Positions 1 to 62,396 of a DNA stretch of 64,000 nt are shown piece by piece. Every line of letters begins with the position of its first letter. Position 1 is the first letter of the stretch. This DNA is from Candidatus Gottesmanbacteria bacterium RIFCSPHIGHO2_01_FULL_40_15 (GTDB lineage: Bacteria; Patescibacteriota; Microgenomatia; 2-02-FULL-39-11), in NCBI GenBank assembly GCA_001779115.1, contig MFJF01000012.1, positions 33,142-97,141 on the forward strand, given 5' to 3'. Under the pieces are notes generated by a model, which was given only the letters and a program-made list of their open reading frames with translations, was not told where the DNA came from and searched no databases. The translations under genes and the position numbers were made by a program.

Positions 1-1157
1 CTTTAACCGCCAATGAAGGAATACTTTACGGAATTAACGAACATGACGGAAGTTTGGTTATTTTTGACAGATTTTCACTGGAGAACGCCAACAGTGTTAT
101 ATTCGGTAAAAGCGGATCGGGAAAGAGCTTTATGGTAAAGCTGGAAGTGATGAGAACGCTTATGTTTGGAGCTGAAGTATTTGTAATAGATCCGGAGGGA
201 GAATACAAGGATTTAACCCGAGCGCTAGGAGGAGATTTGGTTGATTTTTCGTTCAACTCCCCGGTTAAAATTAATCCGTTTGATTTATCGGGAATATATG
301 AAGAGGGAGAAAATGAGCTCGGGCTTAAAATCCTGTCTCTTCACGGACTGATGAGGGTGGTCATGGGAGAAATGAGTCCGGGAGAGGACGCTTTGCTTGA
401 CCGCGCCCTGGTTCTTACCTATAAGCAGAAAGGAATTACGCCAGACCCATCAACCCAAAAAAGAGAACCGCCTTTGATTGAAGACCTTTATAAAGTACTG
501 TTAGGAATGGAAGAAGAAAATGCCAAAAGACTGGCCGAGCGGCTGGAAAAGTTTGTCAAAGGATCCCTCTCAGGAATTTTTAACCAGAAATCAAACCTAA
601 ACCTGAAAAACCCGCTGACGGTTTTTAATATCAAAGAACTGGAGGCGGAATTGCGGCCTTTAGCCATTTTCATTATTCTTGATTTTATCTGGACGAAAAT
701 AAAAAGAAGCATTAAAAAACGTTTGATGATTGTTGATGAGGCCTGGTATTTAATGAAACATCCGGATTCGGCGACATTTTTATACGGTATCGCCAAAAGG
801 GCAAGAAAATATTACCTGGGGGTGACAACCATCACGCAGGATGTTGAAGATTTCATTTCAACAGACCACGGCAAGGCAATTATTACCAATTCATCCCTGC
901 AGATTCTGCTGAAGCAATCAACAGCGGCTATTGATAAACTGGCTGAAGTGTTTTATCTTTCTTCGGGCGAAAAACATTTTCTTTTATCAGCAGGGGTAGG
1001 CGAAGGACTTTTCTTTGCCGGAGCCTCACACGCAGCTGTCCAGTTTATTGCTTCTCCACCGGAATATCAGCTGGCAACAAGCAAGCCTCAGGAAACTGCC
1101 GAAAAATCAGCATATCCTGAGGAAACACCGGTTCCGAACAGAACACCCAACATATAA
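1..1157 (+). CDS. VirB4/TrbE-like type IV secretion ATPase, C-terminal part (5' end runs off the window edge)
   Basis: The frame is open from nt 3 to the stop at 1157. A Walker A motif (GKSGSGKSF) is followed by VIDPEGEY and IVDEAWYLM, then a GVTTITQDVEDF block typical of the VirB4/TraC/CagE C-terminal domain. Confidence 0.6.
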   Translation, partial: LTANEGILYGINEHDGSLVIFDRFSLENANSVIFGKSGSGKSFMVKLEVMRTLMFGAEVFVIDPEGEYKDLTRALGGDLVDFSFNSPVKINPFDLSGIYEEGENELGLKILSLHGLMRVVMGEMSPGEDALLDRALVLTYKQKGITPDPSTQKREPPLIEDLYKVLLGMEEENAKRLAERLEKFVKGSLSGIFNQKSNLNLKNPLTVFNIKELEAELRPLAIFIILDFIWTKIKRSIKKRLMIVDEAWYLMKHPDSATFLYGIAKRARKYYLGVTTITQDVEDFISTDHGKAIITNSSLQILLKQSTAAIDKLAEVFYLSSGEKHFLLSAGVGEGLFFAGASHAAVQFIASPPEYQLATSKPQETAEKSAYPEETPVPNRTPNI

Positions 1158-1217: not shown

Positions 1218-2732
1218 ATGGCCCCAGATGCCCTGATTAAACAGCCAATACCGGATGAATTAAACGCTGAAAAGGAAAGCCAAAACCAGCAAACCGAGGC
1301 TTATGTTTCCGAAGTGCCGGAAGGGGAAATGACTACAATGTGGGCGGGGGTGCTGACATACATTGCCGCAAATCCATTAAACAAACAGGAAAGGGTTTTA
1401 GAAGCCTTAAAGCGCATTAACCGACCTAATTTTGAATATGAACTACTGAAAGTGCGTTACGGAGGAAGATTCCAGAGCCTTAAAGTGGACTTTGAATTGG
1501 TAAAAAAAGAAGTCGGAAAACAGCGGAAGTCAAAAAAAGGGCAACAACGGGGTTATGCCCAGGTCGGGATGGGGCCGTTTAAGAGATTTAAGGAAAAAAT
1601 TGATTTTGATGCGTTTGATCATAAGGAACAAGCATACCATGTGGCCGCCGCAGTTCAAAACAGAATAAACGCACAGGAACTTCGCGGGAAAATTGAAAAA
1701 ACCGCTGAAATCTATAACTTGAATCCGGAAAACAGTACCAAACTGGCTCGGGGAATTGCCGATTGGCAAAGAAAAAATCCGGGAAAACATATTGATGAAT
1801 ATTTCCAAAAGACAGGCCAACATATTCAATACACACAGCAACCCTCAAAAGACAACTTTTTTAAAAGAAGAAAAAAAGAAAAAGAAATAACCGGAGCACT
1901 TTATAGTGAATTAAACGGGGTCAGACTGGATACAATTAAAGCGAACCGGGAACAAATTATTTCAGCGCAGGCAGAAGTTAAAAAACTGCTTGAAGGACCG
2001 GTTGTATCCAGGGAAGAATTATACGCCAGAATCAAAAATACGCTTCACCCGATAGAACCAGTTTCAACACTACCTTTAAGTGAAGCGGCATTACCAGCGA
2101 CAAAAATGCCCGAAGCAGCAACAACCACCGGTGAAATACCAATTAAACAACAAGCTGATACCGGACCAAGGATACCTTTGACACTATCCGGGGGATTACC
2201 GCAACACGCAAGCCCCAGAATATCAATTCCCGCTTTAAAAGAATTGAATCTGCCGAAACTGGGGAATTTTTTAGGAAAAGCAAAAAACTTCACCAATTTG
2301 GGAGGTTCGCTTATTCAAAAAGGACTTTTTAAACTGGGCGGGAAACTAGCTTTGAAAGCCGGTCTCCAAGCAGGATTAGGAACAGCAACCGGAGGCATAT
2401 ATACAGCAGCGAGTATTATCGCCGGACTGATCGGGATTGACCTTGATAAATTTGCGCTAAAAGCGGCTTTATTTGCAGTATTTTTTCCGATAGGACTAGT
2501 ACTTATAATGTTGTTTGTTTTTATGAATTTCAAATCATTGAACAAATTCCCTTCGGGAGTTGACTTGGCTTATCCGGTTAAAGCAAAAATCAGTCCCGAA
2601 AATCAAGCGTATTCCTGGAACACTTTCGAAAAACAGATATTGGAAAAAGCCTTTGCCGACAATAAATTATGGGATAAATTTGAACGGGAAGTATTTTTAG
2701 ACGGAAAAGAATTTTTAAGCTCCAAGAAATAA
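1218..2732 (+). CDS. hypothetical protein with C-terminal transmembrane helices, immediately downstream of the VirB4-like ATPase
   Basis: 504-aa ORF. It has a glycine-rich segment (GGKLALKAGLQAGLGTATGG) and two hydrophobic helices near the C-terminus. No recognisable catalytic motif. Confidence 0.3.
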   Translation: MAPDALIKQPIPDELNAEKESQNQQTEAYVSEVPEGEMTTMWAGVLTYIAANPLNKQERVLEALKRINRPNFEYELLKVRYGGRFQSLKVDFELVKKEVGKQRKSKKGQQRGYAQVGMGPFKRFKEKIDFDAFDHKEQAYHVAAAVQNRINAQELRGKIEKTAEIYNLNPENSTKLARGIADWQRKNPGKHIDEYFQKTGQHIQYTQQPSKDNFFKRRKKEKEITGALYSELNGVRLDTIKANREQIISAQAEVKKLLEGPVVSREELYARIKNTLHPIEPVSTLPLSEAALPATKMPEAATTTGEIPIKQQADTGPRIPLTLSGGLPQHASPRISIPALKELNLPKLGNFLGKAKNFTNLGGSLIQKGLFKLGGKLALKAGLQAGLGTATGGIYTAASIIAGLIGIDLDKFALKAALFAVFFPIGLVLIMLFVFMNFKSLNKFPSGVDLAYPVKAKISPENQAYSWNTFEKQILEKAFADNKLWDKFEREVFLDGKEFLSSKK

Positions 2733-4042: not shown

Positions 4043-5383
4043 TTATACAAAAAGCTCATTTTTTATCCCCATTACATCCCCGCGGAGATTGTTGTCTGTT
4101 GATAACAAATTACTTATTTTTCTTATTCCGTGAAGAATGGTAGTGTGATCACGGCCGCCTAAGAATTCACCGATATCTTTTAAATTAACTCCAGCTTCGG
4201 TTCTTAAAAGATAATACAAAATCTGACGGGGAAAAGAATAAACCTTATCTCTCTTGTCGCCTTTTAACTGAGAAATTTTCAGATTATAGAAACCGGCTAC
4301 CGCTTTTAATATTTCTTCAGGTAAGACTTTTTTTGAAGGAGGAATTTTTTTAAGTGTTTTTCCCAGAATATTTTTAATCAAATCATTATTCACAGGCAGA
4401 TTTTTGGTTTGCGATTCGCTGATTACCCTTGTCAATGTTCCTTCCAGTTTTCTGGTGTTTTCGATGTTGGCGGCAATTGTTTTGGCAGATTCCATGGACA
4501 ATTCATATCCCTTCTGTTTGGCTTTTATTAAAACTATGGCAGTTCTTAATTCGAAATCAGGATTGCCGATATCGATTGTTAAACCGCATTCAAAACGGGA
4601 GCGGAGTCTATCCTCAAGTTTATTGATTTCTTCAGGCGGTTTATCGCTGGTTATGATTATCTGTTTTTTTGCCTGGTAAACAGCGTTAAACGTATGGAAA
4701 AATTCTTCCTGTATTGAATATTTTCCGGCAATAAACTGAACATCATCAATTAACAGGAGATCGACAAGACGATATTTTTTTTTGAAGGTAACGGTTGTTT
4801 TGGTTGAGATGGCCTCAATAATTTCATTGGTGAATTCTTCTCCGGTACAATAAAGTATTTTTGTTTTTATATTTTTTTGACCGACAGCATGGCCGACCGC
4901 CTGCATTAAATGTGTTTTACCCACACCGACACCGCCATAGAGAACCAAAGGGTTATAAGCATGACCCAGATTATTAACAACTGCCGTTGCGGCGGCATAA
5001 GCCATCTGATTGGATGAGGAGACGGCAAAATTTTCAAAATTATAATCCCTGTTTAATTTAAGACCGGTACTGGGGGGCGAAAAATTATCAGGCAGCTTCA
5101 TAGTAAAGAGCGGACCGTCAATATGGTTTAAGTGTTTGTTTTTTCTGGCATTGAAAACCAGAGACACATCTTTTTTTGTATAATTTCGAAGAGTTGTTTT
5201 TATCAGATCATGATACCTTTTTTCAATAATATTAATCAGCATCGGATTATTGCAGCTAATAACCGCTTTACCGTCATCAAGAGATTCCAGACTGGTTTGG
5301 GAGATTAGAGTACGGAAGACTACTTCGCTAACCTGCAGTTCCAAATCGGCAAGAATCGTAGCCCAGAGGTGATGTTCATCCAT
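4043..5383 (-). CDS. dnaA: chromosomal replication initiator protein DnaA
   Basis: 446 aa. AAA+ Walker A (GGVGVGKTHL), LLIDDVQF box and a C-terminal DNA-binding helix-turn-helix region (ILYYLLRTEAGVNLKDIGEFLGGRDHTTILHGIRKI). Confidence 0.9.
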   Translation of the reverse strand: MDEHHLWATILADLELQVSEVVFRTLISQTSLESLDDGKAVISCNNPMLINIIEKRYHDLIKTTLRNYTKKDVSLVFNARKNKHLNHIDGPLFTMKLPDNFSPPSTGLKLNRDYNFENFAVSSSNQMAYAAATAVVNNLGHAYNPLVLYGGVGVGKTHLMQAVGHAVGQKNIKTKILYCTGEEFTNEIIEAISTKTTVTFKKKYRLVDLLLIDDVQFIAGKYSIQEEFFHTFNAVYQAKKQIIITSDKPPEEINKLEDRLRSRFECGLTIDIGNPDFELRTAIVLIKAKQKGYELSMESAKTIAANIENTRKLEGTLTRVISESQTKNLPVNNDLIKNILGKTLKKIPPSKKVLPEEILKAVAGFYNLKISQLKGDKRDKVYSFPRQILYYLLRTEAGVNLKDIGEFLGGRDHTTILHGIRKISNLLSTDNNLRGDVMGIKNELFV

Positions 5384-10629: not shown

Positions 10630-12018
10630 ATGGCAGTACAGCTGAATTACATTGCACCTCCCGGCTGGAAGCCGGAAAATCCCGACCAGAATTTTGTCAT
10701 TGTCCAATATAAGATTGAACTTAATGATTTTGTTGACAAGAGCAAGTTTTTGGATGCGGCAGCATCGGTGGCGGCTGAATCATCGACCGGTACATGGACA
10801 AAAGTCGATGAAGGAGCGGATTCGGGAATTTTAAAGGCTGATTTGTATAAAGCGCTGGTTTTTGACATCGATGAGCCGAATTTCATCTTTAAAGTGGCGT
10901 ATAAAAAAGATCTGTTTGAGGAGGATAACATGTCCGGATTTCTGGCCGGTCCGGCGGGAAACATCGGCGGGATGAAGATGGTATCCGGTCTTCGGATGTT
11001 TGATATCCGCTTTCCTGAAGCAATGGTGAAAGCATTCCCAGGTCCGCGATATGGAATTGAGGGCGTAAGGGATCTTTTGGAACAGGATGAAAAATACAGG
11101 AAGATGCCGATTATGGGAACGGTTCCCAAGCCCAAAGTAGGCAGAAACTCACATGAGCAGGCAGAACTGGCCAGGAGGCTTTGGACTGCAGGGGACGGCA
11201 GTTATGACTTTATCAAAGATGATGAAAATTTAACCAGCCTTTCATTTAATAAATTTGAGGACAGGGCAAGACTGATACATGAAGTTCAGAGGGAACTTGA
11301 GGAAAAAGGGGGTAAAAAGAAATTATATTTGTGCAACTTAACCCATTCCAGTCTGGATATCATGATAGAGAGAGCAAATTTGATTAAGGAAACAGGCGGA
11401 AGATGCATGATGATTGACGTGGTAACGACCGGTCCGGCGGCTGTTCATACGATGAGACTGAAGAATCCGGAGCTGGTCATTCATGCACACCGGGCGATGC
11501 ATGCTTTTATCACCAGAGAGTCGGGTGAGGGCATTACCGGGAAGGGGAAACTTCAGGGTTTTTCCGTTTCCATGCTGACACTTTCTAAAATATTCAGACT
11601 TTTGGGTGTTGATTCGATTCACACAGGATCTCCCAAGGCGAAAATGGAGGATTACGGGGAGAGCGAGGAGATAGCCAAAGTATTGACACAGGATGAAGTT
11701 TCCCCAAATCCCAAGTTCCACAGTTTGGGACAGCGATGGTTCGGGACAAAAAGAGTGTGGCCGACAGCTTCGGGCGGGCTTCATCCAGGTGTAATAGATA
11801 CAGTGATCGGAAAGCTTGGGTCAGATTGTTACATACAGATGGGCGGGGGAGTTTTAGGGCATCCCCAGGGCATTCAAAGAGGTGTTGAAGCAGCCATTGA
11901 AGCGAGAGAAGCAGTCTATGAGGGTAAAAGCGTGAAGGAGTATGTTTCGGAAAATCCTGATTCGGCACTTGCTGTTGCGGTCGGTCTTTGGGGAACAGAA
12001 CCGAAGATTGTGTATTAG
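10630..12018 (+). CDS. ribulose-1,5-bisphosphate carboxylase/oxygenase large subunit, form II/III-like
   Basis: 462 aa. Motifs present: GTVPKPKVG (the KPK loop), DFIKDDENL (site of the carbamylated Lys), IHAHRAMHAF and GGGVLGHP. There is no small-subunit gene nearby. Confidence 0.85.
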   Translation: MAVQLNYIAPPGWKPENPDQNFVIVQYKIELNDFVDKSKFLDAAASVAAESSTGTWTKVDEGADSGILKADLYKALVFDIDEPNFIFKVAYKKDLFEEDNMSGFLAGPAGNIGGMKMVSGLRMFDIRFPEAMVKAFPGPRYGIEGVRDLLEQDEKYRKMPIMGTVPKPKVGRNSHEQAELARRLWTAGDGSYDFIKDDENLTSLSFNKFEDRARLIHEVQRELEEKGGKKKLYLCNLTHSSLDIMIERANLIKETGGRCMMIDVVTTGPAAVHTMRLKNPELVIHAHRAMHAFITRESGEGITGKGKLQGFSVSMLTLSKIFRLLGVDSIHTGSPKAKMEDYGESEEIAKVLTQDEVSPNPKFHSLGQRWFGTKRVWPTASGGLHPGVIDTVIGKLGSDCYIQMGGGVLGHPQGIQRGVEAAIEAREAVYEGKSVKEYVSENPDSALAVAVGLWGTEPKIVY

Positions 12019-18178: not shown

Positions 18179-19432
18179 ATGTCAATGAAGGGAAAAAAGT
18201 TTAGCCAGCATACTTCTAATAGTTTTTTTGAAACTAAAATGGATTTCCTAATTCCAATTATTCCCAATAATAAATTAGAAATATTTTCAAAAATATTCAG
18301 AAATGAAATAATCGCTGCTTTACATAACCAACCTACATCGTTACCAGTTATTTTGAACCCGATACATAAAATGATATCAAGACCCGGTTTAGGTGTTGCA
18401 GTTTCAGTCGGTGGTACGAACGGTTATGCATCAGCTTTCAGAATCACACAAAAAGGGATAATTACATTTATAAACCGAAAAAAATTCTCCATTCCGAAAA
18501 TAATTGATAAAAACAAGTTATTTCATCTTATTTCTGAAAACATTCTGTCAGTTATCGGTAAAGAAAAAAATTTCACCATTGGCATCGGTTTAGCATATCC
18601 TCTGAAGCCGCATTTATATCAGGGTTTTATTGACGGTGAACTGCTTTATATGACTAAAGGAAGAAACATTAAAAATCTGGCAGGTAAAAGAGTCGGACAG
18701 GAATTCCATAAATTTATACTCAAAGAGTACAACTTGGATAATAAGGTAGCTGTAGCTAATGATGTAATTTGCCTTTTATTAGGAGGTGAAAATATTGAAA
18801 TTGCCGGTATAGTCGGTACAGGATTAAATTTTGCATATTGGGAAAAGCGGGCAAATATTGCTCCTTTGAAACTTAATCATCTTCCCGGATTCGGTCAGAG
18901 GGAGGTGGCGGTTAATATCGAATCCCAAAATTTTAATAAACTGCCTGAAACTAAATTAAGAAGAACAGTTGATAAGTATAGCAGTGATCCCGGAAAGTCT
19001 TTGGCTGAGAAAGAAGCTGCCGGGGCATATTTATACCAGATTTTTAATGCGGGAAAGGATAAATTATTGGGTACTGACTTTCCGAAACTGACTTCAACTG
19101 ACCAGTTGAACGACATTATAAGAGGAGCCTTTAGGAATGAAAATCCAAATTTTAAAATCCAAATTCCAAAAGCTAGAGCATTTGCGGAAAGAATACTTCA
19201 CCGGAGTGCGCAGATTACGGCGATAGAACTTTGCGGAATCATGATGAAACTGGGCAAAACTAAAGGTGCAGTGCCTGTTGTGATGGAGGGCGGAATTTTT
19301 TGGAAAGCGCATAATTATCATGCCCTGGTTAACCTTTATGTAAACATGATTCTTCCCGAGGTAATTCCATCATTTGCCCGACTGTTCGGATCTTCAAGAA
19401 GAGGTATTGCCATTTTGGCAAGAGGAATGTGA
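18179..19432 (+). CDS. hexokinase-family sugar kinase
   Basis: 417 aa with the following matches to hexokinase signatures:
- VSVGGTNGYASAF (hexokinase LDLGGTNFRV)
- GIGLAYPLK (LGFTFSFP)
- VAVANDVICLL (VAxVNDTVGTL)
- GIVGTGLNFAYWE (GxIVGTGxNACYME)
- The C-terminal VVMEGGIFWKAHNYH (VDGSLYKxHP). Confidence 0.55.
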   Translation: MSMKGKKFSQHTSNSFFETKMDFLIPIIPNNKLEIFSKIFRNEIIAALHNQPTSLPVILNPIHKMISRPGLGVAVSVGGTNGYASAFRITQKGIITFINRKKFSIPKIIDKNKLFHLISENILSVIGKEKNFTIGIGLAYPLKPHLYQGFIDGELLYMTKGRNIKNLAGKRVGQEFHKFILKEYNLDNKVAVANDVICLLLGGENIEIAGIVGTGLNFAYWEKRANIAPLKLNHLPGFGQREVAVNIESQNFNKLPETKLRRTVDKYSSDPGKSLAEKEAAGAYLYQIFNAGKDKLLGTDFPKLTSTDQLNDIIRGAFRNENPNFKIQIPKARAFAERILHRSAQITAIELCGIMMKLGKTKGAVPVVMEGGIFWKAHNYHALVNLYVNMILPEVIPSFARLFGSSRRGIAILARGM

Positions 19433-19492: not shown

Positions 19493-22400
19493 ATGATAAA
19501 TCCAGAAGCAGGTCCTCCAAGAAGGAATCTTATGGAAGTACTTAAAGAAATCCTGAAACAATTATTGGGGAAAAAACAGGAGGAAAAATTAAGAAAGGAA
19601 GAAGCAGAAAGAAAATCAAGAGAAAAAAATGAAACCGCCAGAAAAGAAAAAAACGAACAAATCCGGCAGCAAAGAGAGAAAGAGAAAAAGAAAAAAGAAG
19701 AAAGAGAAGCGGAGAAAGCTTATCATGAGAGAAGATCGGCCCAGAAAAGAGTTGAAGAGGAGGATTTGGAGAAAGCAAGAGAAGCTATCCATAAAAAAAG
19801 CACAGAAAAGATAAAAGAACAGATTAAGAACGTAATTGAACAACCGGAACCGGAAAAAGGGAAGATCACATCAGGTTATGAAACAGCTTATTATCTTTTT
19901 CCGGAAAGTTTACGCAATGATCCACAAAAGCTAAACCAACTTTACAGATTAATTGAGGAAAATCCAAGAGCCGCTTCGGTTCTGGAAGCGTTAACCGAGA
20001 AAGACGCTGTAATTCACAGCGATCCGGGAAGACTTCTTGAAGCCGGAAAACTTCTTTATATCAGTACTCCTGATGAGTTAAAACCTGTTGCTGAGGAAAT
20101 CATCTCGGTTATAAACCGGAGGATTAAAGAACTGATTCCCATAAAAGCCGTCGAATTACAACAGAGAGGGAGGCAACAAATTAATGAAGAAACAGCCCGG
20201 CAAGCAACATTAAATGACGTTTTAAGACAGGTAGATCCATATGTAACTCCGGAACAAAGGGAACTTTTAGCAAACTGGAGGACATATGAGCAAGCGGTTG
20301 ATCAAATCTTATCAAGTCCCGGGTTTGAAGGCGAAGTCAGAAAGGTTGATATACCGGCAATACCGGGAACATTGCCGGAAACGGCGATAAAGAGCATCGA
20401 TAAAGTGTGGGAGAAGGTGGAACAGGTACAAAAGGGAAAAAGGTCACTAACAACTGAAGAACTGGACAAAATACGAAGAGAATTATATGAAGCTGAATCA
20501 GATGCGTTTCCCAAAGATGTAATACCCGGATCTGAGGAGTATAACAGAGAAGTACAAGCAATATACAGACATTCCGAGGAGAGGCTTAATCAGCTGGCCG
20601 AGATGTTCCGGGAAAGATTGAGAAGCGAGACCCCACCGGTAAAAACGGGAATTACCGATCCGGAGGAATTCCTGTTCAGAATGTCAGAGCGGTCGGGAAT
20701 TTTGGGAGATTTGTTATTGAGAAATCCGGAAATGCTTAAACTTTTTACCGGAACCGGTAAAGATGCGTACTGGTTCAGAAACCAGATTTTTTTAAGAATT
20801 CACGGATCGGTCTTAACCCAAAAAAGGGAATCTTCCGGGGAAAATTTCAGCCTATATGAAAGGTCCGATTTTACCTCATTTATAAGTTTATTAAGAGGAG
20901 GATTATCGGGCATTATTGTCCCTGATACAGGAAAAAGCGTCGGACAGACCTGGTCTGACTGGTATACATCGCTGTCTACAACAATAAGATTATCAAGGGA
21001 TATAGATTTTTGGGTGTCGCAGCCGGCAGCTTCAATTGACAACTTCAATAAATCCCTGGCTTTATTCCAAAACGAGTATTCGGTCCAGGCAATGACCATG
21101 CCGGCAGTCGAGCAAGCCTACCGGGCGTATGAGACTGCTTTGATGACAATCAGGGATACCAATGACGGCTATATTCCTCCGGCACTTATTGAGTATGATG
21201 CGGTTCACAATACCATCTATTGGGACCAATGGGCTCAGGATTTGCTTTCCAATAAAATGATTCCCCAGGGAGTTGTCAGGGACAGCGCCCGGGATTTTGA
21301 AAGAATGGGAGGGTTGCCATTAGTAAATCCCGACGGGATAACTACCCAAATCGGAGACGTGATTACCGAGGATGATTTGAAAAAAGACCCGCAGAAGCTG
21401 GAAATCCAGATGTACATGACACTGGCTAAGGGATTCGGAATGGCCAGTATGAGATTTTTGGAAATTGTAGCCAATTCCAAAGTTCCGATGGTTGGAATGC
21501 CCGGATTCCACAGCCCGGTTTATGAGGGCGCGGCTATTGCATTGAACTATTGGAATCTGTTTATGAAGAAATGGGGTCAGGGAGCATATAAATATTTCCA
21601 TATGATGAATACGGTATTGCCTTATGAAAAGCGATTACCGGTTGATTCCAAAGGAGCGGAGAAAGCTTATCTGGCTCATCTGAACGGTACATTTAAAGAG
21701 AAATATGGTGAGGAAGCAAAAAGACTTTTAGATGTATTGAATTTTGACCGTGCAAGCGGAGCATTTACGGAATTTACTCCCTGGAGGTATTTTGATGACA
21801 CAATCGGCTGGACGGATAGGCAAAAACAGTTAATGGGGGGTCCGACCAGGCATATTTTTGCCGAAAGATTTGCTAGTGAAAAAGTAAAGGAATATCTGGT
21901 TGAGGAAAGATATAAAGAGATATTCAGGAAGAGGAAAAGGGAAGCAGGTCAGCCGGATTCAGGTCCGGAATTTGACACTTTATGGTTGAATGAAGGGATA
22001 TCTATATATGAAAGTGCAATAGATAAAGACTGGAGAGAATTAAATCACCATCATAAGAAGCGTGTTGATGAGTTAATTTATAATTATACCAAAGCATTCC
22101 GATCCCGGGTGTGGGTTGAAACAGCTATGCGCAGTCCGGTGACAATGGCACATATTATTGACGTGAAAATGCCCATACCGGGATACGGAAAAGAAAAAAA
22201 ATCAAGAAAACTGCATAGTTATATTATTGAACAGGTGTTAGGAATAACTCCGGAGGATATCGAATACGGTTCGGTTGAAGGAGATGAAGGACAATATAAA
22301 ATATACGCGGCGAAATATGCTTCACCAACTGAAGCTCAAAGGATAAAGTTAAAGGAGATATTCGACCTTGAGGGGGATTTAATGTCGGTCAGGGAAATTG

Positions 22401-23347
22401 CCATGTCGGAAAACAGAGAGTTAAGAGTTAGCGATTTTGAGATAATTAAGGATACAGTCAGACAGGAACATGCCAGAAAGTATTGGAATATTGTTAAAAG
22501 ATATGTGATCGGGGACGAAAATCCCGACAGTAACAGAATTTATCAAAATTTAGGCATAGAGCTTCATTTTGACAATTATGACATTGACTGGCATAAGATT
22601 GAGCGGATTGATGAGCAAATGCGAAATTATAAGAATATTGTTGTTTTGCCGGCAACGGCCGGAACAGAAATGTCAGTGTTACCGCAAGCTTTTGAGGAGG
22701 AGTGGCTTAACAAAGAATTTGAATGGGTGGAATCAACCGATGATACGGCTTTCCGGGAGATGGATCTTCTTAATTTGGGATCAAGACAATGGGTAAGAAG
22801 GGGCGGAGATGTTGCCTCGCACTTTCAAGGATCGCAGTTAACAGCTGAATATTTTGACGTGGAATTAACACCCAATCCTGATCCGAGTAAGCTAGCTGAA
22901 GCACTTTTGAAGATAAGAAAAGCGTACCAGGGGGATGATATCGGGGTAGGATACCGGCTGGCGGGAGCTTTGGGGCAGCTGACCAGCAAGTTATACGAAT
23001 TTGATTATAAAAGACTGGGGTCTGCCGCCCAAATGGAGGTTTGGAATACAAGAAGAGGGGTAGCAGCCTGGAATGCCAACGGCAGGCGGGCTTTTTGGGA
23101 TGCAGTTGAGCATATGGATGTAATCCCTCCCCATGCAGAATTTGAATTTCCGAATCCATTTTTGCAAGGGCCACCAATAAGAGACGTCAAATACATGAAT
23201 ATTCATGAGTTGAGACACCTGAATCATGCCGATAATGCCGATGTCTGGGTGGAAATACTTACTTTGGGAATTTTGCTGGCAACAGCAATTACCGTTTGGA
23301 GGGCGTTCACGGCCAAAAGCGAAGAGGAAGAAGCAGGGGGACATTAA
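19493..23347 (+). CDS. large hypothetical protein (1284 aa) with a K/E-rich coiled-coil N-terminus and a C-terminal membrane anchor
   Basis: An uninterrupted 3855-nt ORF. The first ~110 aa are a low-complexity Lys/Glu/Arg run. One hydrophobic helix (ILTLGILLATAITVW) sits 20 aa from the C-terminus. No catalytic motif recognised. Confidence 0.5.
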   Translation: MINPEAGPPRRNLMEVLKEILKQLLGKKQEEKLRKEEAERKSREKNETARKEKNEQIRQQREKEKKKKEEREAEKAYHERRSAQKRVEEEDLEKAREAIHKKSTEKIKEQIKNVIEQPEPEKGKITSGYETAYYLFPESLRNDPQKLNQLYRLIEENPRAASVLEALTEKDAVIHSDPGRLLEAGKLLYISTPDELKPVAEEIISVINRRIKELIPIKAVELQQRGRQQINEETARQATLNDVLRQVDPYVTPEQRELLANWRTYEQAVDQILSSPGFEGEVRKVDIPAIPGTLPETAIKSIDKVWEKVEQVQKGKRSLTTEELDKIRRELYEAESDAFPKDVIPGSEEYNREVQAIYRHSEERLNQLAEMFRERLRSETPPVKTGITDPEEFLFRMSERSGILGDLLLRNPEMLKLFTGTGKDAYWFRNQIFLRIHGSVLTQKRESSGENFSLYERSDFTSFISLLRGGLSGIIVPDTGKSVGQTWSDWYTSLSTTIRLSRDIDFWVSQPAASIDNFNKSLALFQNEYSVQAMTMPAVEQAYRAYETALMTIRDTNDGYIPPALIEYDAVHNTIYWDQWAQDLLSNKMIPQGVVRDSARDFERMGGLPLVNPDGITTQIGDVITEDDLKKDPQKLEIQMYMTLAKGFGMASMRFLEIVANSKVPMVGMPGFHSPVYEGAAIALNYWNLFMKKWGQGAYKYFHMMNTVLPYEKRLPVDSKGAEKAYLAHLNGTFKEKYGEEAKRLLDVLNFDRASGAFTEFTPWRYFDDTIGWTDRQKQLMGGPTRHIFAERFASEKVKEYLVEERYKEIFRKRKREAGQPDSGPEFDTLWLNEGISIYESAIDKDWRELNHHHKKRVDELIYNYTKAFRSRVWVETAMRSPVTMAHIIDVKMPIPGYGKEKKSRKLHSYIIEQVLGITPEDIEYGSVEGDEGQYKIYAAKYASPTEAQRIKLKEIFDLEGDLMSVREIAMSENRELRVSDFEIIKDTVRQEHARKYWNIVKRYVIGDENPDSNRIYQNLGIELHFDNYDIDWHKIERIDEQMRNYKNIVVLPATAGTEMSVLPQAFEEEWLNKEFEWVESTDDTAFREMDLLNLGSRQWVRRGGDVASHFQGSQLTAEYFDVELTPNPDPSKLAEALLKIRKAYQGDDIGVGYRLAGALGQLTSKLYEFDYKRLGSAAQMEVWNTRRGVAAWNANGRRAFWDAVEHMDVIPPHAEFEFPNPFLQGPPIRDVKYMNIHELRHLNHADNADVWVEILTLGILLATAITVWRAFTAKSEEEEAGGH

Positions 23348-24852
23348 TTTCCCCTATGGGTAGGTTTCTGGCCGCCGCCGAATATGCCTTTGAGAGGACC
23401 GGGAAGGTTCTGCATGGTTGACTGCAAATAATAGAACTGGCTGGCAGCACCCATTGTAGTTTGGGTAGCTCCGGTCAGGGGAGCAAAAGCCGTTCCGGCA
23501 GTAATCGGCAGGAGCGGTTTGGGATGGAAAGCTTTTTTAACCGTAGCAATTAGCGTGGGAGCGAGAAAGAGAACTCCCAGTCCCAGAAAGGCGGTAAAAG
23601 ATCCTTTACCGGGCATGGAGATAAAGGGCGGTGAGAAAAGGCTCCCTGTATCAGTATTGATTTGGGCCAGATATTGGGCAAACATCAGTATGGCCACAGT
23701 TGTCGGGAAAACGACCAGGTTGGCAATAACATTCATAATCCACTGGGAAAAAGCCGAGCGGCCGGGGACAGCTTCAAGAAGGAGCTGGAGAGGACCAATT
23801 ACCAGGGCAATAAGGAGTTGAATATAGGAATTTAAAAGCAGAAGAAAAATCCTGATAAAAGTAAAAAGCAGTCCCAGGAAAAGAATCAGAATAAATAATG
23901 CTCCGATGGCACCGCCGCCGATTAAAACCGCCCACCAGCCGGCCTGCAATATCAGCGCGATTATTCCAACAGCAGTTCCGGATCCCAGATAAGCGGTGAA
24001 ATTCCTTTTGAAAAAATCATCCAGCGTTGAGAAACCGCCGGAAAAAACGGTTTTAAAAAGATCGCCAAAATCAGCCGTTAGAAAATATGTCTGAAATTCA
24101 GCAACCCTTGATGATTGTTCAAAACCATTGGCCAAAAGACTGACTATTATGGCCGTAGACAAATACATGAGATCAACCAGAAAACCGATAATCGGGTATG
24201 AAAGAGTGATAAGAATCAGAGTAATAACAATCTTGGGAAGAGCAGCCTGGACGGAAATAACTGTTTTGGGATCGATTTTCATACGGAAGATGACCATAAA
24301 TCCTATGGCAATCATGATGACAATCATGACAGAGTAGGAGATATTGCGGGTAACTTTCCAGAGAGGCAGAAGAGGGGAAAGTCCGGCAAAACCGATACCC
24401 TGGGCATAGGCCGGTTTAACAAGAATACCTGAATTTTCCAGCATATCATACGCGTAATAGATACCCGAGGCAGGCGGATTAGCGTAGATCGTTCCGATTG
24501 CCCGAGCGAGCGCGCCCATCATAGTATATTTTTCATTACAATATTTTTGATCGATACAACCAATCTGACTGGCAAGAGCATAGGGCATAACTCCGGCAAA
24601 TCTGATCATGACATCACGATCAAAAACCTGGGTTGCTCCCTCTTGTTGCGCTGTTATCCGGGCCTGTTCTCCCTGTTGATTTAATGTATCAACACTGGTG
24701 TCGAGCAGAATATCCTGGGGATTGGCAGCGGAAGTGAAATGTAATTTTATAAATAAGGATAAGACCAGGAAGACAATAGAAAAGAATAAAATTCTCCGGG
24801 GCAGTTTAGGCATGTCTAATTTCATTATTTCCGCTTGTGAGGGAAGTGTCAA
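23344..24852 (-). CDS. polytopic membrane protein, VirB6/TrbL-like candidate
   Basis: 502 aa. Signal/TM start, then a ~150 aa extracytoplasmic segment, then at least 7 TM helices rich in G/A/L. Last gene of the pilin-like operon. Confidence 0.35.
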   Translation of the reverse strand: MTLPSQAEIMKLDMPKLPRRILFFSIVFLVLSLFIKLHFTSAANPQDILLDTSVDTLNQQGEQARITAQQEGATQVFDRDVMIRFAGVMPYALASQIGCIDQKYCNEKYTMMGALARAIGTIYANPPASGIYYAYDMLENSGILVKPAYAQGIGFAGLSPLLPLWKVTRNISYSVMIVIMIAIGFMVIFRMKIDPKTVISVQAALPKIVITLILITLSYPIIGFLVDLMYLSTAIIVSLLANGFEQSSRVAEFQTYFLTADFGDLFKTVFSGGFSTLDDFFKRNFTAYLGSGTAVGIIALILQAGWWAVLIGGGAIGALFILILFLGLLFTFIRIFLLLLNSYIQLLIALVIGPLQLLLEAVPGRSAFSQWIMNVIANLVVFPTTVAILMFAQYLAQINTDTGSLFSPPFISMPGKGSFTAFLGLGVLFLAPTLIATVKKAFHPKPLLPITAGTAFAPLTGATQTTMGAASQFYYLQSTMQNLPGPLKGIFGGGQKPTHRGN

Positions 24853-24868
24853 GTTTTGATAGGGAATT

Positions 24869-25192
24869 TCAGGTTCCGGGGACGGTAAAGATGGTAATTT
24901 TTACTCCGGTGTAAAATTCAATAATCCTGAATATCAAAAAAGCAATTGCCATAAGAGCAATTCCCATGACGGCATAAGTCATAGTCTGTTTGGCTGAGGC
25001 TGCAGCTTTTGGGTCGCCGGCGGCCGTTAACAATTTAAATCCGCCGACAATGAGCATGATAAACAGTGCCAAAAGTCCAAGACTTATGGCAATATTGAGA
25101 ATTTGTTTGTAGACAGCTTCGAGGCATTTGAGAGTCGGCACGTCAACACCGCCGATTGTTTTTATACAAGGAACTCCGGCCCAAGGTTTCAT
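24869..25192 (-). CDS. VirB2/TrbC-like T4SS pilin-family small membrane protein (paralog B)
   Basis: 107 aa with two hydrophobic helices flanking a GGF...AAGDPKAAASAKQ core. Clearly paralogous to the upstream 128-aa gene. Confidence 0.5.
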   Translation of the reverse strand: MKPWAGVPCIKTIGGVDVPTLKCLEAVYKQILNIAISLGLLALFIMLIVGGFKLLTAAGDPKAAASAKQTMTYAVMGIALMAIAFLIFRIIEFYTGVKITIFTVPGT

Positions 25193-25207
25193 GAAGTATC
25201 AGTAAGA

Positions 25208-25594
25208 TCAGACTCCGCTCGGAATTACTAAGTTAAAGATATTTTGAATTCCGAAGAACCGGCCGACCAGAATCATGATCGCCCAGGCGGCAAAGACAAC
25301 AAAAAGACCGATAATGGCAGCCTGAATTCTTTTCTGGGCAGCTTCAACACCGGCTTTATCTCCGCCTGATGTTATCCATTGGAATCCGCCAAGCAATAAG
25401 TAAATAAAGGCAGCAAGAGTGGCGACAACCAGAATTGCGCCTATCGCTCCGCTTATCAACCTTCCCAAATCAGTTACCCTAAGATTTGGCGGTGCCGGAA
25501 TATTTAACGGAACTCCCTGAGCGTAAACGGCTGTTGACAAAAGATGAAAGGAAAATGGAAGCGACCCGATGAACAATTTCTTAAATGCGGTCAT
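25208..25594 (-). CDS. VirB2/TrbC-like T4SS pilin-family small membrane protein (paralog A, signal peptide)
   Basis: 128 aa. Signal peptide (…STAVYAQG), then a helix, GGFQWITSGGDKAGVEAAQKRIQAAIIG, then a second helix. This architecture is typical of TrbC/VirB2 pilins. Confidence 0.5.
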   Translation of the reverse strand: MTAFKKLFIGSLPFSFHLLSTAVYAQGVPLNIPAPPNLRVTDLGRLISGAIGAILVVATLAAFIYLLLGGFQWITSGGDKAGVEAAQKRIQAAIIGLFVVFAAWAIMILVGRFFGIQNIFNLVIPSGV

Positions 25595-25647
25595 TTTATT
25601 GTATTATGAACATACTTAAACATGCTTGTCAAGTAGGGATAAAAAAA

Positions 25648-58908: not shown

Positions 58909-59937
58909 TCAGATTACCCGGATTACACCACCGTACATTCCCATACTGCAGGAAAAACTTATATCCCCAGCCGTATTCGGAGTTTTTATTTCAACAGTAT
59001 CATTTGAACCCGTTCTTATTATTTTTTGCACGTTAAGTTTGGGTATGGAAAATGCCTGGATGCAGCCGTAACCGTCATTATTTACCAGATTTAATTTCAC
59101 CAGTGAATTCTTTGGGACAGTAATTGAACGGGGAGAATAGCCGTTTGACCGGAAATAAATTGTTGCTTCAGTTACGGGAACGTCAGAGGCGGCCAGAATC
59201 TGATGAGGACAAATACTTAGCGCTGTACAGGAAAAGTCCAACCAAGCTGATTTTATCAAAACGCGGCCGCCGGAGAGAGAAAGAGCATTGTTAATATTAA
59301 AAACAGCCAGAATCAGGATGGCAAAAGCAGCTACTCTCATAAATCTATTTTGAAAAACATTATTTAATTTTCCGGCCAGGAAACCGAAAATAAAAAATAA
59401 CGGAGAAGTTCCGAGAATAAAGGAAAACATAATCAGGGCAGAATAAAAAGGATCAGCCGTGGCCAGGGCTAAGGCCATAATTGCCTGAGTAGTACCGCAG
59501 GGAATAAAAACCGTCAGAGCGCCAAGAACACCCGGCGCGAAAATGTCGTTGCTTTTGCTTTGATTTTTCAGAAGCCGGAAGAGAAATTTCGGGGGAGTTA
59601 TAACAAAATACCGAAAAACGGGATGAATATTGAGAATATTTAAAGCCGTGCCGATCATAAAGACAGCAACTGCAGATTGGATAAATGCCTGAGTGATGAC
59701 GGAAAAGCGAAAGTATGAACCTAGGAAGCCTAATAAGAATCCGAGAACAGTATAAGCGACAAGCTTTGAGATGAGAAATGATAAAACAGGGAAGAGACTG
59801 CCGGATTTTTTCATTTTTGACATGAGCCGTTTATTTTCGCGTTGCGCCAATACAGCTGCCAGCAGACCACCCTGGACAGCCATACAGGTGAGTCCGCCGG
59901 TTAACAACCCTGTCAGAAAAACGGTATAGATTTCCAT
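58909..59937 (-). CDS. DsbD_2/TauE-like permease fused to a C-terminal cupredoxin-like extracytoplasmic domain
   Basis: 342 aa. The N-terminal ~230 aa have 6 TM helices with LTGGLTCMAVQGG and FIPCGTTQA motifs. The C-terminal ~110 aa are a beta-rich soluble domain with Cys/Met/His (SFSCSMGMYGG). Adjacent to the HMA chaperone gene. Confidence 0.4.
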   Translation of the reverse strand: MEIYTVFLTGLLTGGLTCMAVQGGLLAAVLAQRENKRLMSKMKKSGSLFPVLSFLISKLVAYTVLGFLLGFLGSYFRFSVITQAFIQSAVAVFMIGTALNILNIHPVFRYFVITPPKFLFRLLKNQSKSNDIFAPGVLGALTVFIPCGTTQAIMALALATADPFYSALIMFSFILGTSPLFFIFGFLAGKLNNVFQNRFMRVAAFAILILAVFNINNALSLSGGRVLIKSAWLDFSCTALSICPHQILAASDVPVTEATIYFRSNGYSPRSITVPKNSLVKLNLVNNDGYGCIQAFSIPKLNVQKIIRTGSNDTVEIKTPNTAGDISFSCSMGMYGGVIRVI

Positions 59938-59978
59938 GAATATTAAGATTTTAGCATATAGCGGGCAATTAAGAAGTG

Positions 59979-61409
59979 TTACCGATTCAATTGATAGATT
60001 ACAAAAGGTTGGTTGTCATAAATAACTGAATATTTATTTACAGTTTCTCTTCTTACAATATCGGCAAAATCACCAGTCAAACCATTATTAAAAAGAATAT
60101 AGGTGAAATACCCGTCCGAAATAGCTTTCCGGAAGCCTTCATAGCTTGACAGACCCTGATAGTTAATTTCAAAAGGACCGGTAAGCGCTTCTTGTGGAAT
60201 TTCCGGTAAGGCCAGATCGGTGACATTGCCTTCACTTGAGAGAATTTTGTCTCCTGTTGAGACAACTGATTTCAAACCAGTCATAGCATTTTCAGAATTA
60301 GGCCATGATGTTTCCAAGTCTTTTTTTTGAGAGAAAGAGTAGAGAAAAACCATAATTAGGAAAATAAAAGACAAACCTGCTCTTATGGCCATGTTTTTCT
60401 TACTTATATTACTTATGAGGAAGCCGGCAGAAGGGAGGAGAAAGACAAGGGACAGGAAGACATGCTGGTGTGCAGCATCGAGATTATTGGTTAAAAGGTG
60501 AGCCAATGGAACAGTCAGAGCTCCAAACAGCAAAAAAAAGGCGATACCTTTTGCTTTTAGAAAAAGGAAGAAAAATCCGACAAGGGCGAAAGGCAATACA
60601 GGCAGAGAAAAGACATAAAACTCGTTAATTATTTCAGAATAGTGTCTTTGCGGGTCGGGAATCTGATTGATGACAAATTCGCGAAGATCAGGAAAATAAA
60701 TTACCAGATAAGAAATTATTGCCAGTGACAAAGGGAAAATAAAATACTTAAGGGTCAGATTCAAAGATAACCGGTCTTGTTTCAAACTTTTATAAATTGC
60801 CCAAACAGCAATAAGCGGGAAAAGGATCAGGGTCGTATATTTAGCCAAAAAGGAGAGAAATAAAGACAGCGCCGACAGAAAATAAAAATTTTCCTTCTGC
60901 CAGAGTCCGTGTTTTTTAACAGCCAATCCAGAAAGCAGGAAAAAAAGGCCAGCTAAGAAAAAGGTAAATGAAAGCATGTCGTAAATTGCCAGACGGCTCA
61001 GATAGACCGGAATACTCATTACAGCCAGAAGAAAAGCGGATATACCGGCAATAAATTCATTATTATCAGATATATCGGATAAATGAAGTTTGAACGTGAA
61101 ACCGTAAAGCAAATAGACTGACAAAGTACCCAGAAGGACGTTTAAGAGACGGGAACCCAATAAACCCCCGATGTTATAAAAGAGAGCTGAAAGGGACGGA
61201 TAAAACAGAGGCATACCGCCGATCCAGGAAAAGGGTGATTCTTCCTGCCAATGACCTTCAAGGACTTTTTCCCCCAATTTAATATAAATAGCCTCATCCA
61301 GAAAAGGAGTGTTGTAGTTGAGGTTAATTACCCTGAATAGAAATGCCGCCAAAATAATTAAAACCAGCGGATTATAAAAAAGCCATTTAAAAACAGATTT
61401 GTTATTCAT
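59979..61409 (-). CDS. GT-C fold glycosyltransferase (GT39/ArnT/PMT-like)
   Basis: 476 aa with about 11 TM. FLDEAIY near the N-terminus matches the DE motif of GT-C dolichyl/undecaprenyl-phosphate-sugar transferases. Confidence 0.55.
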   Translation of the reverse strand: MNNKSVFKWLFYNPLVLIILAAFLFRVINLNYNTPFLDEAIYIKLGEKVLEGHWQEESPFSWIGGMPLFYPSLSALFYNIGGLLGSRLLNVLLGTLSVYLLYGFTFKLHLSDISDNNEFIAGISAFLLAVMSIPVYLSRLAIYDMLSFTFFLAGLFFLLSGLAVKKHGLWQKENFYFLSALSLFLSFLAKYTTLILFPLIAVWAIYKSLKQDRLSLNLTLKYFIFPLSLAIISYLVIYFPDLREFVINQIPDPQRHYSEIINEFYVFSLPVLPFALVGFFFLFLKAKGIAFFLLFGALTVPLAHLLTNNLDAAHQHVFLSLVFLLPSAGFLISNISKKNMAIRAGLSFIFLIMVFLYSFSQKKDLETSWPNSENAMTGLKSVVSTGDKILSSEGNVTDLALPEIPQEALTGPFEINYQGLSSYEGFRKAISDGYFTYILFNNGLTGDFADIVRRETVNKYSVIYDNQPFVIYQLNR

Positions 61410-61527
61410 TTATAATGAGTATCCCTTGTCAAACCAACCCGACAATATTTATCCGGTTTAACAATTTATTAATAAAAATCACATTAAATTTCATAAGATT
61501 TATGTCAGAAAGAGAAAAAATTGAATT

Positions 61528-61953
61528 TCAGGCGGAAATTAATTTTTGTCTTAATCCAAGGAGGTAAATAATACTCAAGATATTGGAAATTATGGCTATT
61601 ATCAGAATTAATACCTGATATTGAATAATAAAGAAGGTTAAGAAAGAGAGACCAATTAAAGGCAGAATGTCGGTTAAATGATGAGCGCAACAGGCAATCA
61701 TACCAACGGTTGATACTGCCGAGTTGGCGGCAGCCAATTTTCCGGAACTGTCTGTGAGATTTTTCAGGGAAACGTAGAGACCTATTTGGACTCCAAATCC
61801 CAGCGATAACGGAATCATATAAAACCACAGTTTTTTAAATTGTATCAGGGTTGTTTCAAAAGAACCGGCAAGGTAAGTCATGGTGATAAAATAAAAAAGC
61901 AGAAGAAATGATCCGGCGGTGATACCTGAAGCTATCGGTTTATATTTATTCAT
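61528..61953 (-). CDS. small polytopic membrane protein with a vicinal-cysteine motif (ACCAHH)
   Basis: 141 aa, 4 TM. CC pair followed by HH in a loop. Last gene of a four-gene operon. Confidence 0.3.
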   Translation of the reverse strand: MNKYKPIASGITAGSFLLLFYFITMTYLAGSFETTLIQFKKLWFYMIPLSLGFGVQIGLYVSLKNLTDSSGKLAAANSAVSTVGMIACCAHHLTDILPLIGLSFLTFFIIQYQVLILIIAIISNILSIIYLLGLRQKLISA

Positions 61954-62396
61954 TAAAATTCAAATTCCCTCCTTGTTATCCCGGCCAGGTCTTTGATAAT
62001 GATTTTATAAGGTGGGGGAACTTGCGGAAAACTTAATTCCGCCTGACGGTGATGACCCCCACCGTAAAGAGTTATATCACGGGGTTTTCCGGATGAATTT
62101 TGATACTCCAGCAGAACGTTTTTTCCAAAATTGAACTGATCGAGATCGACTGAATGGGTATCCAATGAAACGGAGAAAAAGAGCGTGTCTTGAGATGATT
62201 TTTCCGATAGAAATTTTATACTTACCGAAACATTTCCTTGCTCCTGAAATTGAGAATTTTTATTAAGATTAGTGTCAAGCGGATTAATTTTTTGTATTTC
62301 CCTTTCTTCTTTTGCCAAACTGATAAGAGAAATAAAAACTATCAGAAAAATTACAATTATTAATGTTTTATATTCCCAGGACAGTTTTTTTATCAT
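61953..62396 (-). CDS. hypothetical secreted/anchored protein (signal peptide, GGGHH motif)
   Basis: 147 aa. N-terminal signal/anchor, then a soluble domain. Start and stop are coupled to the neighbours. Confidence 0.3.
   Translation of the reverse strand: MIKKLSWEYKTLIIVIFLIVFISLISLAKEEREIQKINPLDTNLNKNSQFQEQGNVSVSIKFLSEKSSQDTLFFSVSLDTHSVDLDQFNFGKNVLLEYQNSSGKPRDITLYGGGHHRQAELSFPQVPPPYKIIIKDLAGITRREFEF

Follow-up and report, generated by a model that had tools for sequence, protein, structure and literature searches.

Known systems and the Gottesmanbacteria locus

A Saccharibacterium relies for its epibiotic growth on a Gram-positive-like type IV secretion system (T4SS) with an essential series of pilins, in which no relaxase or coupling protein can be recognised (Wang 2023, PMC10633639). 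A survey of 3,035 genomes (Quinonero-Coronel 2025, PMC12102498) has described an MPF_FATA-related clade of VirB4 that is accompanied by TrsD and PrgI, as well as arrays of 2-11 PF18895/PF04956 pilin genes that are abundant in Microgenomatia and Saccharimonadia. VirB4 was found near dnaA, relaxases were scarce, and few type IV coupling proteins (T4CPs) were encoded near virB4. VirB6 was reported as "scarce" in Microgenomatia, "suggesting extreme sequence divergence". Here, we analyse a 64-kb stretch (the window) of the chromosome of a Candidatus Gottesmanbacteria organism, a member of the Microgenomatia within the Candidate Phyla Radiation (CPR). It carries three intact, co-directional minus-strand genes, two for pilin-like proteins and one for a polytopic membrane protein. 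It is likely that these genes are the pilus-and-platform submodule of a chromosomal, MPF_FATA-related Patescibacteria T4SS, the PrgI/VirB3-like, TrsD-like and VirB4 proteins of which are encoded 22 kb away. The three genes are:

25208..25594, minus strand: pilin-like gene 1, 128 aa, ortholog of array position 5 (PF18895, 30.5 bits; position-5 hidden Markov model (HMM), 130.7 bits)
24869..25192, minus strand: pilin-like gene 2, 107 aa, ortholog of array position 6 (PF18895, 35.3 bits; position-6 HMM, 114.3 bits)
23344..24813, minus strand: VirB6-like candidate, 489 aa (502 aa from TTG 24852), judged by hydropathy, AlphaFold2 (AF2), Foldseek, an NCBIfam scan of its family, and synteny

An earlier note on this DNA had already read the locus as a dispersed, apparently non-conjugative T4SS-like apparatus of an episymbiotic CPR bacterium. 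That reading matches the two publications and survived every test run; it re-derives the published system, of which the locus is a new member. With the Patescibacteria T4SS (Ca. Southlakia epibionticum SEML1_0006-0019, and the survey), the locus shares a CD1110-type VirB4 next to dnaN/dnaA, putative TrsD-like and PrgI-like partners, tandem divergent PF18895 pilins, a chromosomal location and the lack of a relaxase nearby. It differs in the distance of 22 kb between the pilin/platform genes and VirB4, in having two pilins only, in a polytopic protein that goes undetected by TrbL/VirB6 or PrgH profiles, and in a tail-anchored protein of ~1,280 aa as a conserved neighbour. Moreover, the survey suggested free variation among the pilins, whereas we find six fixed orthogroups in the related loci.

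The gene order in Microgenomatia, namely pilin(s), polytopic protein, PrgI-like protein, (TrsD-like protein), VirB4 and hydrolase, is colinear with PrgF-G-H-I-J-K of the Enterococcus faecalis plasmid pCF10. There, the order comprises PrgF (VirB2-like), PrgG, PrgH (VirB6), PrgI (VirB3), PrgJ (VirB4) and PrgK (CHAP hydrolase), and the VirB4 is of the same NCBIfam type as the one in the window. PrgF has been modelled as a VirB2-like pilin on a PrgH pentamer, and VirB2-like pilins adjoin virB6 in most Gram-positive plasmids (preprint, 10.64898/2025.12.18.695078). However, pCF10 encodes a relaxase and a T4CP and is conjugative, and its pilin is a single one, compared to two to six in Microgenomatia. 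PrgH (266 aa) passes the TrbL HMM at 29.2 bits, whereas the CPR protein (489 aa) does not. PrgF was not detected by the Microgenomatia pilin profile.

The same profile, run against 882 open reading frames (ORFs) of pCF10 and pLS20, found one match (E = 2e-06), to an unannotated 76-aa protein of the pLS20 conjugation operon (L089 14035-14265), which is itself a PF18895 member at 32.1 bits. In this Bacillus plasmid, the transmembrane (TM) protein p028 is encoded between VirD4 and a VirB4-like ATPase, in the same operon as the 76-aa protein. In Mycoplasma integrative and conjugative elements (ICEs), a comparable module consists of the pilin-like Mbov_0395, the TM protein Mbov_0396 and the VirB4 Mbov_0397 (CDS15-17 of ICEA). 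Judging by the consecutive locus tags, Mbov_0396 would be CDS16, an 8-TM protein adjoining VirB4 that has been called "likely the VirB6-like component" (PMC12857230). In NCBIfam, the window pilins (NF045849) and the membrane protein family (NF045889, NF045848, NF045890) match best to genes of the Mycoplasma ICEs and of pLS20, which belong to organisms with monoderm or wall-less envelopes. In contrast to the window locus, these elements are mobile and conjugative, and with NCBIfam matches far below the cutoffs they can be no more than distant relatives. The survey had left open the capture of CPR pilins from diderm systems; PF18895 pilins and related TM proteins in pLS20 and the Mycoplasma ICEs favour a monoderm origin over such a capture.

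For structure, the closest reference is the R388 system (PDB 7O3V, 8RT9, 8RTD) with TrwI (VirB6) and TrwL (VirB2). TrwI is the best structural match of the model of the 489-aa protein and the template for a pentameric platform that recruits pilins. R388 differs in being a diderm system with an outer-membrane complex, VirB5 and VirB7/9/10. The identity to TrwI is 12-16%, and the Foldseek E-values are not significant.

The pilin-like proteins

Membership of both small proteins in PF18895 (T4SS_pilin) is firm, as both scores lie above the curated gathering threshold of 26.6 bits. The two adjacent genes were described in the earlier note as paralogs of 128 and 107 aa; they are indeed related (BLASTP, 30% identity over 64 residues, E = 3e-08), and the peptides that were quoted are present in their products. 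The proposed architecture of helix, short polar loop and helix is likewise borne out by hydropathy, which places two strong hydrophobic segments on either side of a short polar loop in each protein, and by the AF2 model of the 128-aa protein. In its mature form, this protein is modelled as a hairpin of helices at residues 14-49 and 54-87, joined by a 4-residue loop (pLDDT 72.7, from an alignment of 2 sequences).

The N-termini of the two proteins differ. The 128-aa pilin has a Sec-type signal peptide, MTAFKKLFIGSLPFSFHLLSTAVYA before the predicted cleavage site and QG after it, and continues into a two-helix hairpin with a conserved SGGDK loop. The 107-aa pilin is without a signal peptide. Its N-terminal tail contains the conserved Cys9 and Cys23, and an AAGDPK loop connects the two helices of its hairpin.

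Outside PF18895, the profile searches had a mixed outcome. The matches to TrbC/VirB2 and TrbL/VirB6 models that the earlier note had proposed to look for were not obtained, in contrast to PF18895: the TrbC/VirB2 HMM (PF04956) matched neither window pilin, and the TrbL/VirB6 HMM did not match the third protein. Among 50 array pilins of relatives, 49 match PF18895 and three match PF04956 (E = 8.9e-4 or weaker). The sole NCBIfam match of the window pilins, which is sub-threshold, is to NF045849, the Mbov_0395 family of pilin-like conjugal transfer proteins (E = 1.3e-4 for the 128-aa and 3.7e-6 for the 107-aa protein).

The polytopic membrane protein

The 489-aa protein starts with an N-terminal TM anchor, followed by an extracytoplasmic region of ~120 aa, an AYAQGxG motif and a long-helix core (~residues 140-430). 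The motif is invariant and lies just before the TM core (residues 135-141, window 24393-24413). It resembles the leader/cleavage motif VYA/QG of the pilins, and may represent a common processing or recognition site. The protein is polytopic, with five or more hydrophobic helices, and its gene either separates the pilin and VirB3/VirB4 genes or adjoins them. Its family comprises 3,447 representatives at 50% identity (E <= 0.001), and all members examined are unannotated.

The AF2 model has a pLDDT of 74.5 overall and of > 90 over much of the core (residues ~200-380). When it was compared with 350,542 PDB chains using Foldseek, the top seven matches were TrwI/VirB6 chains of the R388 T4SS, with probabilities of 0.85-1.00. 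DotA ranked eighth, and the remaining matches all had probabilities <= 0.15. The fold match of the model to VirB6 is suggestive but not significant.

Sequence signals were sought in 91 divergent family members. TrbL/VirB6 (PF04610) was matched by only one of them in the Pfam scan (E = 0.0027). In the NCBIfam scan, matches accumulated in three families of TM proteins from monoderm conjugation systems, namely Mbov_0396 (NF045889, 16/91), pLS20_p028 (NF045890, 12/91) and MMCAP2_0566 (NF045848, 9/91), while the next family was matched by 2/91. The best E-value was 5.7e-05 (Mbov_0396) and the best score to any of the three was 22.7 bits; the window protein itself was unmatched. The alignments are colinear over the TM core: residues 164-262 of one member correspond to model positions 57-154, and residues 342-465 of another to positions 178-298 of the same 306-position model. 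At the level of sequence, such recurrent colinear matches below threshold appear to indicate distant relatedness to the three families, not membership in them. The term VirB6-like draws on fold, on context and on weak sequence signals rather than on family membership, and the protein is probably the hard-to-recognise VirB6 platform of the CPR T4SS.

Conservation of the gene cluster

For the analysis of synteny, 80 loci with relatives of the membrane gene were taken from GTDB species representatives (at least 574 species matched). They include Gottesman-, Roizman- and Woesebacteria and other Microgenomates. Pilins were counted in the 71 loci with at least 1.5 kb of upstream sequence, and the VirB4 module in the 51 loci that extend 9 kb or more downstream. 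In 69/71 loci, the membrane gene is preceded on the same strand by two or more pilin ORFs, and their number is exactly six in 54/71. The module of p455, p224 and VirB4 is found downstream, on the same strand and within 10 kb, in 41 of the 51 loci. The ten loci that lack a nearby VirB4 module are mostly those of the Gottesmanbacteria nearest to the window.

A VirD4-like T4CP (PF10412, PF02534, PF12696) is encoded on the opposite strand in 30 loci, between the gene for the large partner protein described below and the PrgI-like gene, e.g. at L085:15636-17810 (-) and L021:16719-18896 (-). A CHAP-domain protein follows VirB4 in 4 loci; few loci extend past VirB4. In some relatives, an extra large ORF is located between the pilin array and the VirB6-like gene (L079:8122-9747, 541 aa; L052:3185-6328, 1,047 aa), and the 541-aa ORF has no Pfam match.

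Since most relatives keep six pilins and a nearby VirB4 module, the split two-pilin arrangement of the window is a derived state of a larger conserved cluster. The same arrangement also occurs in the Gottesmanbacteria loci L007, L009 and L010, which encode membrane proteins with 56-61% identity. The apparatus had been characterised as minimal, but this fits only the present lineage, as most relatives have six pilins and an in-cluster T4CP, and a few have the CHAP protein.

The conserved neighbour of the membrane gene is a large convergent gene:

19493..23347, plus strand: convergent partner, 1,284 aa, no signal peptide, K/E-rich N-terminus, single C-terminal TM helix

At their stop codons, this gene and the membrane gene overlap by 4 nt. 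The partner protein ends in a conserved acidic tail (SxEEExxxGxH). Homologs occur in 46 of the 80 related loci, nearly all of them convergent and just downstream of the membrane gene. No match to Pfam, NCBIfam or PDB sequences was found (Pfam was run on 20 homologs, and a profile was compared with the PDB).

The VirB4 module and the rest of the window

The distant part of the system lies at the left end of the window, about 22 kb from the pilin and membrane protein genes and adjoining dnaN-dnaA:

3..1157, plus strand: VirB4, C-terminal 384 residues, CD1110/MPF_FATA type (NF045971 conju_CD1110, E = 8e-86; PF19044, E = 1.9e-29)
1218..2732, plus strand: 504-aa protein downstream of VirB4, with one C-terminal-proximal TM helix
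2737-3846: dnaN, chromosomal neighbour of VirB4
4043-5383: dnaA, chromosomal neighbour of VirB4

The VirB4-like ATPase that had been noticed here is genuine, although it is cut by the edge of the window and not, as had been assumed, by the edge of the contig. Truncation by the window edge accounts for a score below the equivalog cutoff of NF045971. From left to right, the contig encodes a 455-aa protein, a 224-aa TraC/TrsD-like protein, VirB4 (700 aa), the 504-aa protein, dnaN and dnaA, and none of the VirB4-module proteins is polytopic. The 455-aa protein, which has a pair of hydrophobic helices at its N-terminus, matches PrgI only weakly (E = 0.007, 17.3 bits versus a cutoff of 27). Its gene is just left of the window (L005:5750-7117), and its PrgI/VirB3-like N-terminus is followed by a long, low-complexity linker rich in K, P, T and E and by a C-terminal domain; it may be a fused or extended VirB3. 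For the 224-aa protein, which sits in the TrsD position, there is a precomputed match to TraC-like PF26593 that hmmscan did not reproduce. The 504-aa protein holds the slot of the CHAP-domain (VirB1-like) protein of some relatives, and no homology to those CHAP-domain proteins was detected.

In agreement with the earlier note, relaxase and VirB8/9/10 families are absent from the Pfam lists of the annotated genes of the window, though no dedicated relaxase search was run, and a VirD4-type protein is not encoded there either. The remaining annotated genes belong to housekeeping Pfam families or to none. A RuBisCO large-subunit homolog (10630-12018) and a hexokinase (18179-19432) are near the module. 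The hexokinase gene adjoins the gene for the large partner in at least 6 related loci, which probably reflects conserved local gene order rather than a functional link. On the minus strand at 58909-63992, unannotated membrane and small proteins are encoded beside DsbD-like, cupredoxin, HMA and YHS genes, in what looks like a copper/thiol-redox module with no relation to the T4SS. The unannotated cluster at 59.9-64 kb was considered as a pilus system and rejected, because its sequences and neighbours resemble copper/thiol-redox membrane proteins.

Pilin orthogroups

Position-specific pilin HMMs were trained on 27 six-pilin loci and tested on 27 others, where they assigned 160 of 162 pilins to their own array position. 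The median identity is 50% for pilins of the same position across genomes, compared to 32% for pilins of different positions within a genome. Conservation is highest at position 5, with a cross-genome identity of 70% versus 48-57% for the other positions. The window genes for the 128-aa and 107-aa proteins are orthologs of positions 5 and 6, and the same is true in L009 and L010. By these sequence comparisons, the six paralogs form fixed, ordered orthogroups, of which the window locus retains positions 5 and 6. The dN/dS values against L009 and L010 are 0.07-0.16 (0.16 for pilin 1 versus L010, 0.07 for pilin 2 versus L009), with synonymous sites saturated, and the reduced module is therefore under purifying selection.

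The array pilins have a conserved GGD-K loop. At positions 1-5, many Microgenomatia pilins (L021, L085, L053, L034) start with a leader of 6-8 residues, M-x-x-Φ-Φ-A-Q, instead of a Sec signal peptide, while the position-5 pilin of the window (25517-25594) and the Roizmanbacteria locus L026 have full signal peptides that end in the same motif. The short leaders are not artefacts of ORF calling, as little in-frame sequence precedes them and what there is lacks hydrophobicity. In all arrays inspected (L021, L085, L053, L026), the position-6 pilin is without a signal peptide and has a conserved Cys...Cys pair in the N-terminal tail. This suggests that the position-6 pilin could be a specialised, possibly disulfide-bonded subunit, encoded next to the platform gene.

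Gene starts and promoter-like sites

On the minus strand, the ORFs of the module span 25594..25208 (128 aa), 25192..24869 (107 aa) and, from a TTG codon, 24852..23344 (502 aa). The assignment of starts was aided by putative regulatory sites:

25603..25632, minus strand: sigma70-type promoter-like site of pilin gene 1, TTGACA, 18-nt spacer, CATAAT, 11/12 matches
24824..24852, minus strand: second promoter-like site, of the membrane protein gene, TTGACA at 24852, 17-nt spacer, AATAAT ending at 24824, 11/12 matches
23337..23354, minus strand: weak terminator-like hairpin at the convergent junction, 5 pairs, poor T-run, number of such sites not above chance, low confidence

The supposed TTG start of the 502-aa ORF is part of the -35 hexamer of the second promoter-like site. 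As TTG 24852 sits inside this site, the true start of the membrane gene is more likely ATG 24813, and the gap to the 107-aa pilin gene would be 55 nt. The NCBI product of the third gene, which has 489 aa and is 100% identical, also begins with MPKL at ATG 24813. Hence, the earlier note was correct in describing the third product as a polytopic membrane protein, but its length is probably 489 aa rather than 502 aa, and the spacing is probably 55 nt rather than 16 nt.

For pilin gene 1, the end of the -10 hexamer is 8 nt from ATG 25594. This geometry supports ATG 25594 as the putative start, and with it the length of 128 aa and the full Sec-type signal peptide. An internal start for the 128-aa ORF was rejected, because the codon of Val23 is GTT, which is not a start codon, and because the promoter geometry fits ATG 25594. 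In both promoter-like sites, the -10 hexamer is located 8-10 nt before an ATG. If these sites are used, the pilin and membrane protein transcripts would have little or no leader. Across the region, promoter-like sites show no excess in number over the shuffled expectation, and therefore only match quality and placement carry weight.

Weight of the evidence and alternative explanations

A number of results weigh against the assignment of the three genes to a T4SS pilus and platform. The Foldseek matches to TrwI do not reach significance (E = 0.03-0.7, target-normalised TM-scores of 0.35-0.50). The 489-aa protein of the window has no match in Pfam or NCBIfam, a profile of its family found nothing relevant among PDB sequences, and hhalign against a 33-sequence PrgH/VirB6 family gave a probability of 0.25%. 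The hhalign comparisons of the family with PrgH alone and with pLS20 p028 were negative both times. All NCBIfam matches of the family are far under the curated cutoffs, which are 70 bits for NF045889 and 150 bits for NF045890. With its extra N-terminal domain, the protein is also much larger than PrgH or TrwI (about 270 aa). For the pilins, the structural likeness that had been anticipated extends to the hairpin of the 128-aa model but not to a specific match with a solved pilin: Foldseek retrieved only generic helical hairpins from the PDB, all with E > 1, and the pilin profile matched no solved pilin among PDB sequences. Finally, only two of six pilins are present at the locus, and the window encodes no T4CP, CHAP hydrolase or further pilin, so that function in this organism is not guaranteed.

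Some of these results could be taken to mean that the pilins and VirB4 do form a Patescibacteria T4SS, but that the 489-aa protein is an accessory (a pilin insertase, chaperone, processing factor or lineage-specific channel component), with the true VirB6 absent or encoded elsewhere. We consider this unlikely. It would account for the fact that all sequence-level tests for VirB6 failed or stayed sub-threshold, with Foldseek E > 0.01, and for the ~200 residues beyond PrgH/TrwI with the extra extracytoplasmic domain. The similarity of AYAQG to the cleavage-site motif of the pilins provides a hint of a link to pilin processing. However, the top seven structural matches are exclusively to VirB6, and the recurrent colinear matches point to proteins in the VirB6 slot of Mycoplasma ICEs and pLS20. 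No other polytopic candidate was noticed in the cluster, and no catalytic motif is evident. The size need not disqualify the protein, as monoderm systems are known to have VirB6 proteins extended to 700-900 aa (PMC12857230).

It appears quite improbable that the locus is a decaying or repurposed remnant, the genes of which are kept as small membrane proteins with another role, e.g. in envelope or membrane organisation. The presence of positions 5 and 6 only, the missing T4CP, CHAP protein and further pilins in the window, and the distance of 22 kb to VirB4 might be expected of a remnant. Yet the absence of parts was judged on 64 kb, and they may lie elsewhere in the genome. All ORFs are intact, the dN/dS values are low, and the promoter-like sites are near consensus. 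In addition, the two-pilin layout is kept in L007, L009 and L010, the genes for VirB4 and its TrsD-like and PrgI-like partners are intact beside dnaA, and the most conserved pilin paralog is among those retained.

The earlier note had left an unrelated small-membrane-protein system, such as a holin/antiholin or bacteriocin immunity locus that merely resembles pilins, as an equally open alternative, but its chance is now negligible: two-helix hairpins are generic and the structural matches of the pilin model non-specific, yet both proteins exceed the PF18895 threshold, no phage or bacteriocin genes were seen nearby, and synteny effectively refutes the idea, with the same gene pair within 10 kb of VirB4 in ~80% of related loci and linked to VirB4, TrsD-like, PrgI-like and T4CP genes in most related genomes.

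Proposed assembly and function

If the three genes are indeed the pilus-and-platform part of a T4SS, assembly could proceed as follows. The 128-aa pilin would be exported by the Sec system and cleaved after AVYA, and the 107-aa pilin would insert into the membrane without a signal peptide. In the membrane, both would form two-helix hairpins, the helices being joined by a short charged GGD/GDP-K loop. The 489-aa protein would oligomerise into a VirB6-like platform, and VirB4 would provide the energy to pull pilins out of the membrane and stack them on the platform. The product would be a short pilus or conduit, with the charged loop facing the lumen. By contacting the surface of the host cell, it might serve the episymbiotic lifestyle through the export of protein or other cargo, not through conjugation. 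Pilin processing, oligomerisation, pilus formation and substrate are proposed here by analogy with TrwI/TrwL of R388 and PrgH/PrgF of pCF10. Because no relaxase or T4CP is in view, protein export or another host-directed process is more likely than conjugation.

The ancestral Microgenomatia cluster would have comprised six pilins, the VirB6-like protein, the large partner, a T4CP, the PrgI-like and TrsD-like proteins, VirB4 and, in a few loci, a CHAP protein. The lineage of the window has a reduced and split derivative of it. The position-5 pilin is likely the major subunit. A more elaborate picture, which we regard as speculative and rather doubtful, is that of a heteromeric six-pilin machine instead of a homopolymeric pilus with spare variants, in which the six ancient paralogs, kept in a fixed order, would each have a structural role of their own. 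In such a machine, position 5 would be the major subunit, position 6 an initiator or a tip/adaptor beside the platform, and the VirB6 highly divergent and extended, while the ~1,280-aa protein would be either a dedicated structural partner or the principal translocated substrate that is inserted into the host cell. The window lineage would then represent the minimal working core of position 5, position 6, platform and large protein.

Implications for Microgenomatia

The T4SS as such is known, but the present membrane protein family had not previously been assigned a VirB6 role. What is new here is a candidate VirB6 for Microgenomatia, the description of six fixed pilin orthogroups together with a naturally reduced two-pilin lineage, and a conserved partner of ~1,280 aa. 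The survey did not find VirB6 in most Microgenomatia. In contrast, the candidate family has at least 3,400 sequence clusters, and its genes are nearly always located behind a pilin array. Likewise, an in-cluster VirD4-type T4CP was found in 30 Microgenomatia loci, compared to few T4CPs near virB4 in the published survey.

A large part of bacterial diversity belongs to the Patescibacteria, most of which live attached to the cells of other microbes. The one member that is genetically tractable cannot grow on its host without the T4SS and its pilin array (PMC10633639). The existence of six stable orthogroups, one of them highly conserved, speaks against the interpretation of pilin diversity as variation for host range, and points towards a heteromeric assembly. 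Which of the subunits may be indispensable is suggested by the lineage that has been reduced to two pilins in nature.

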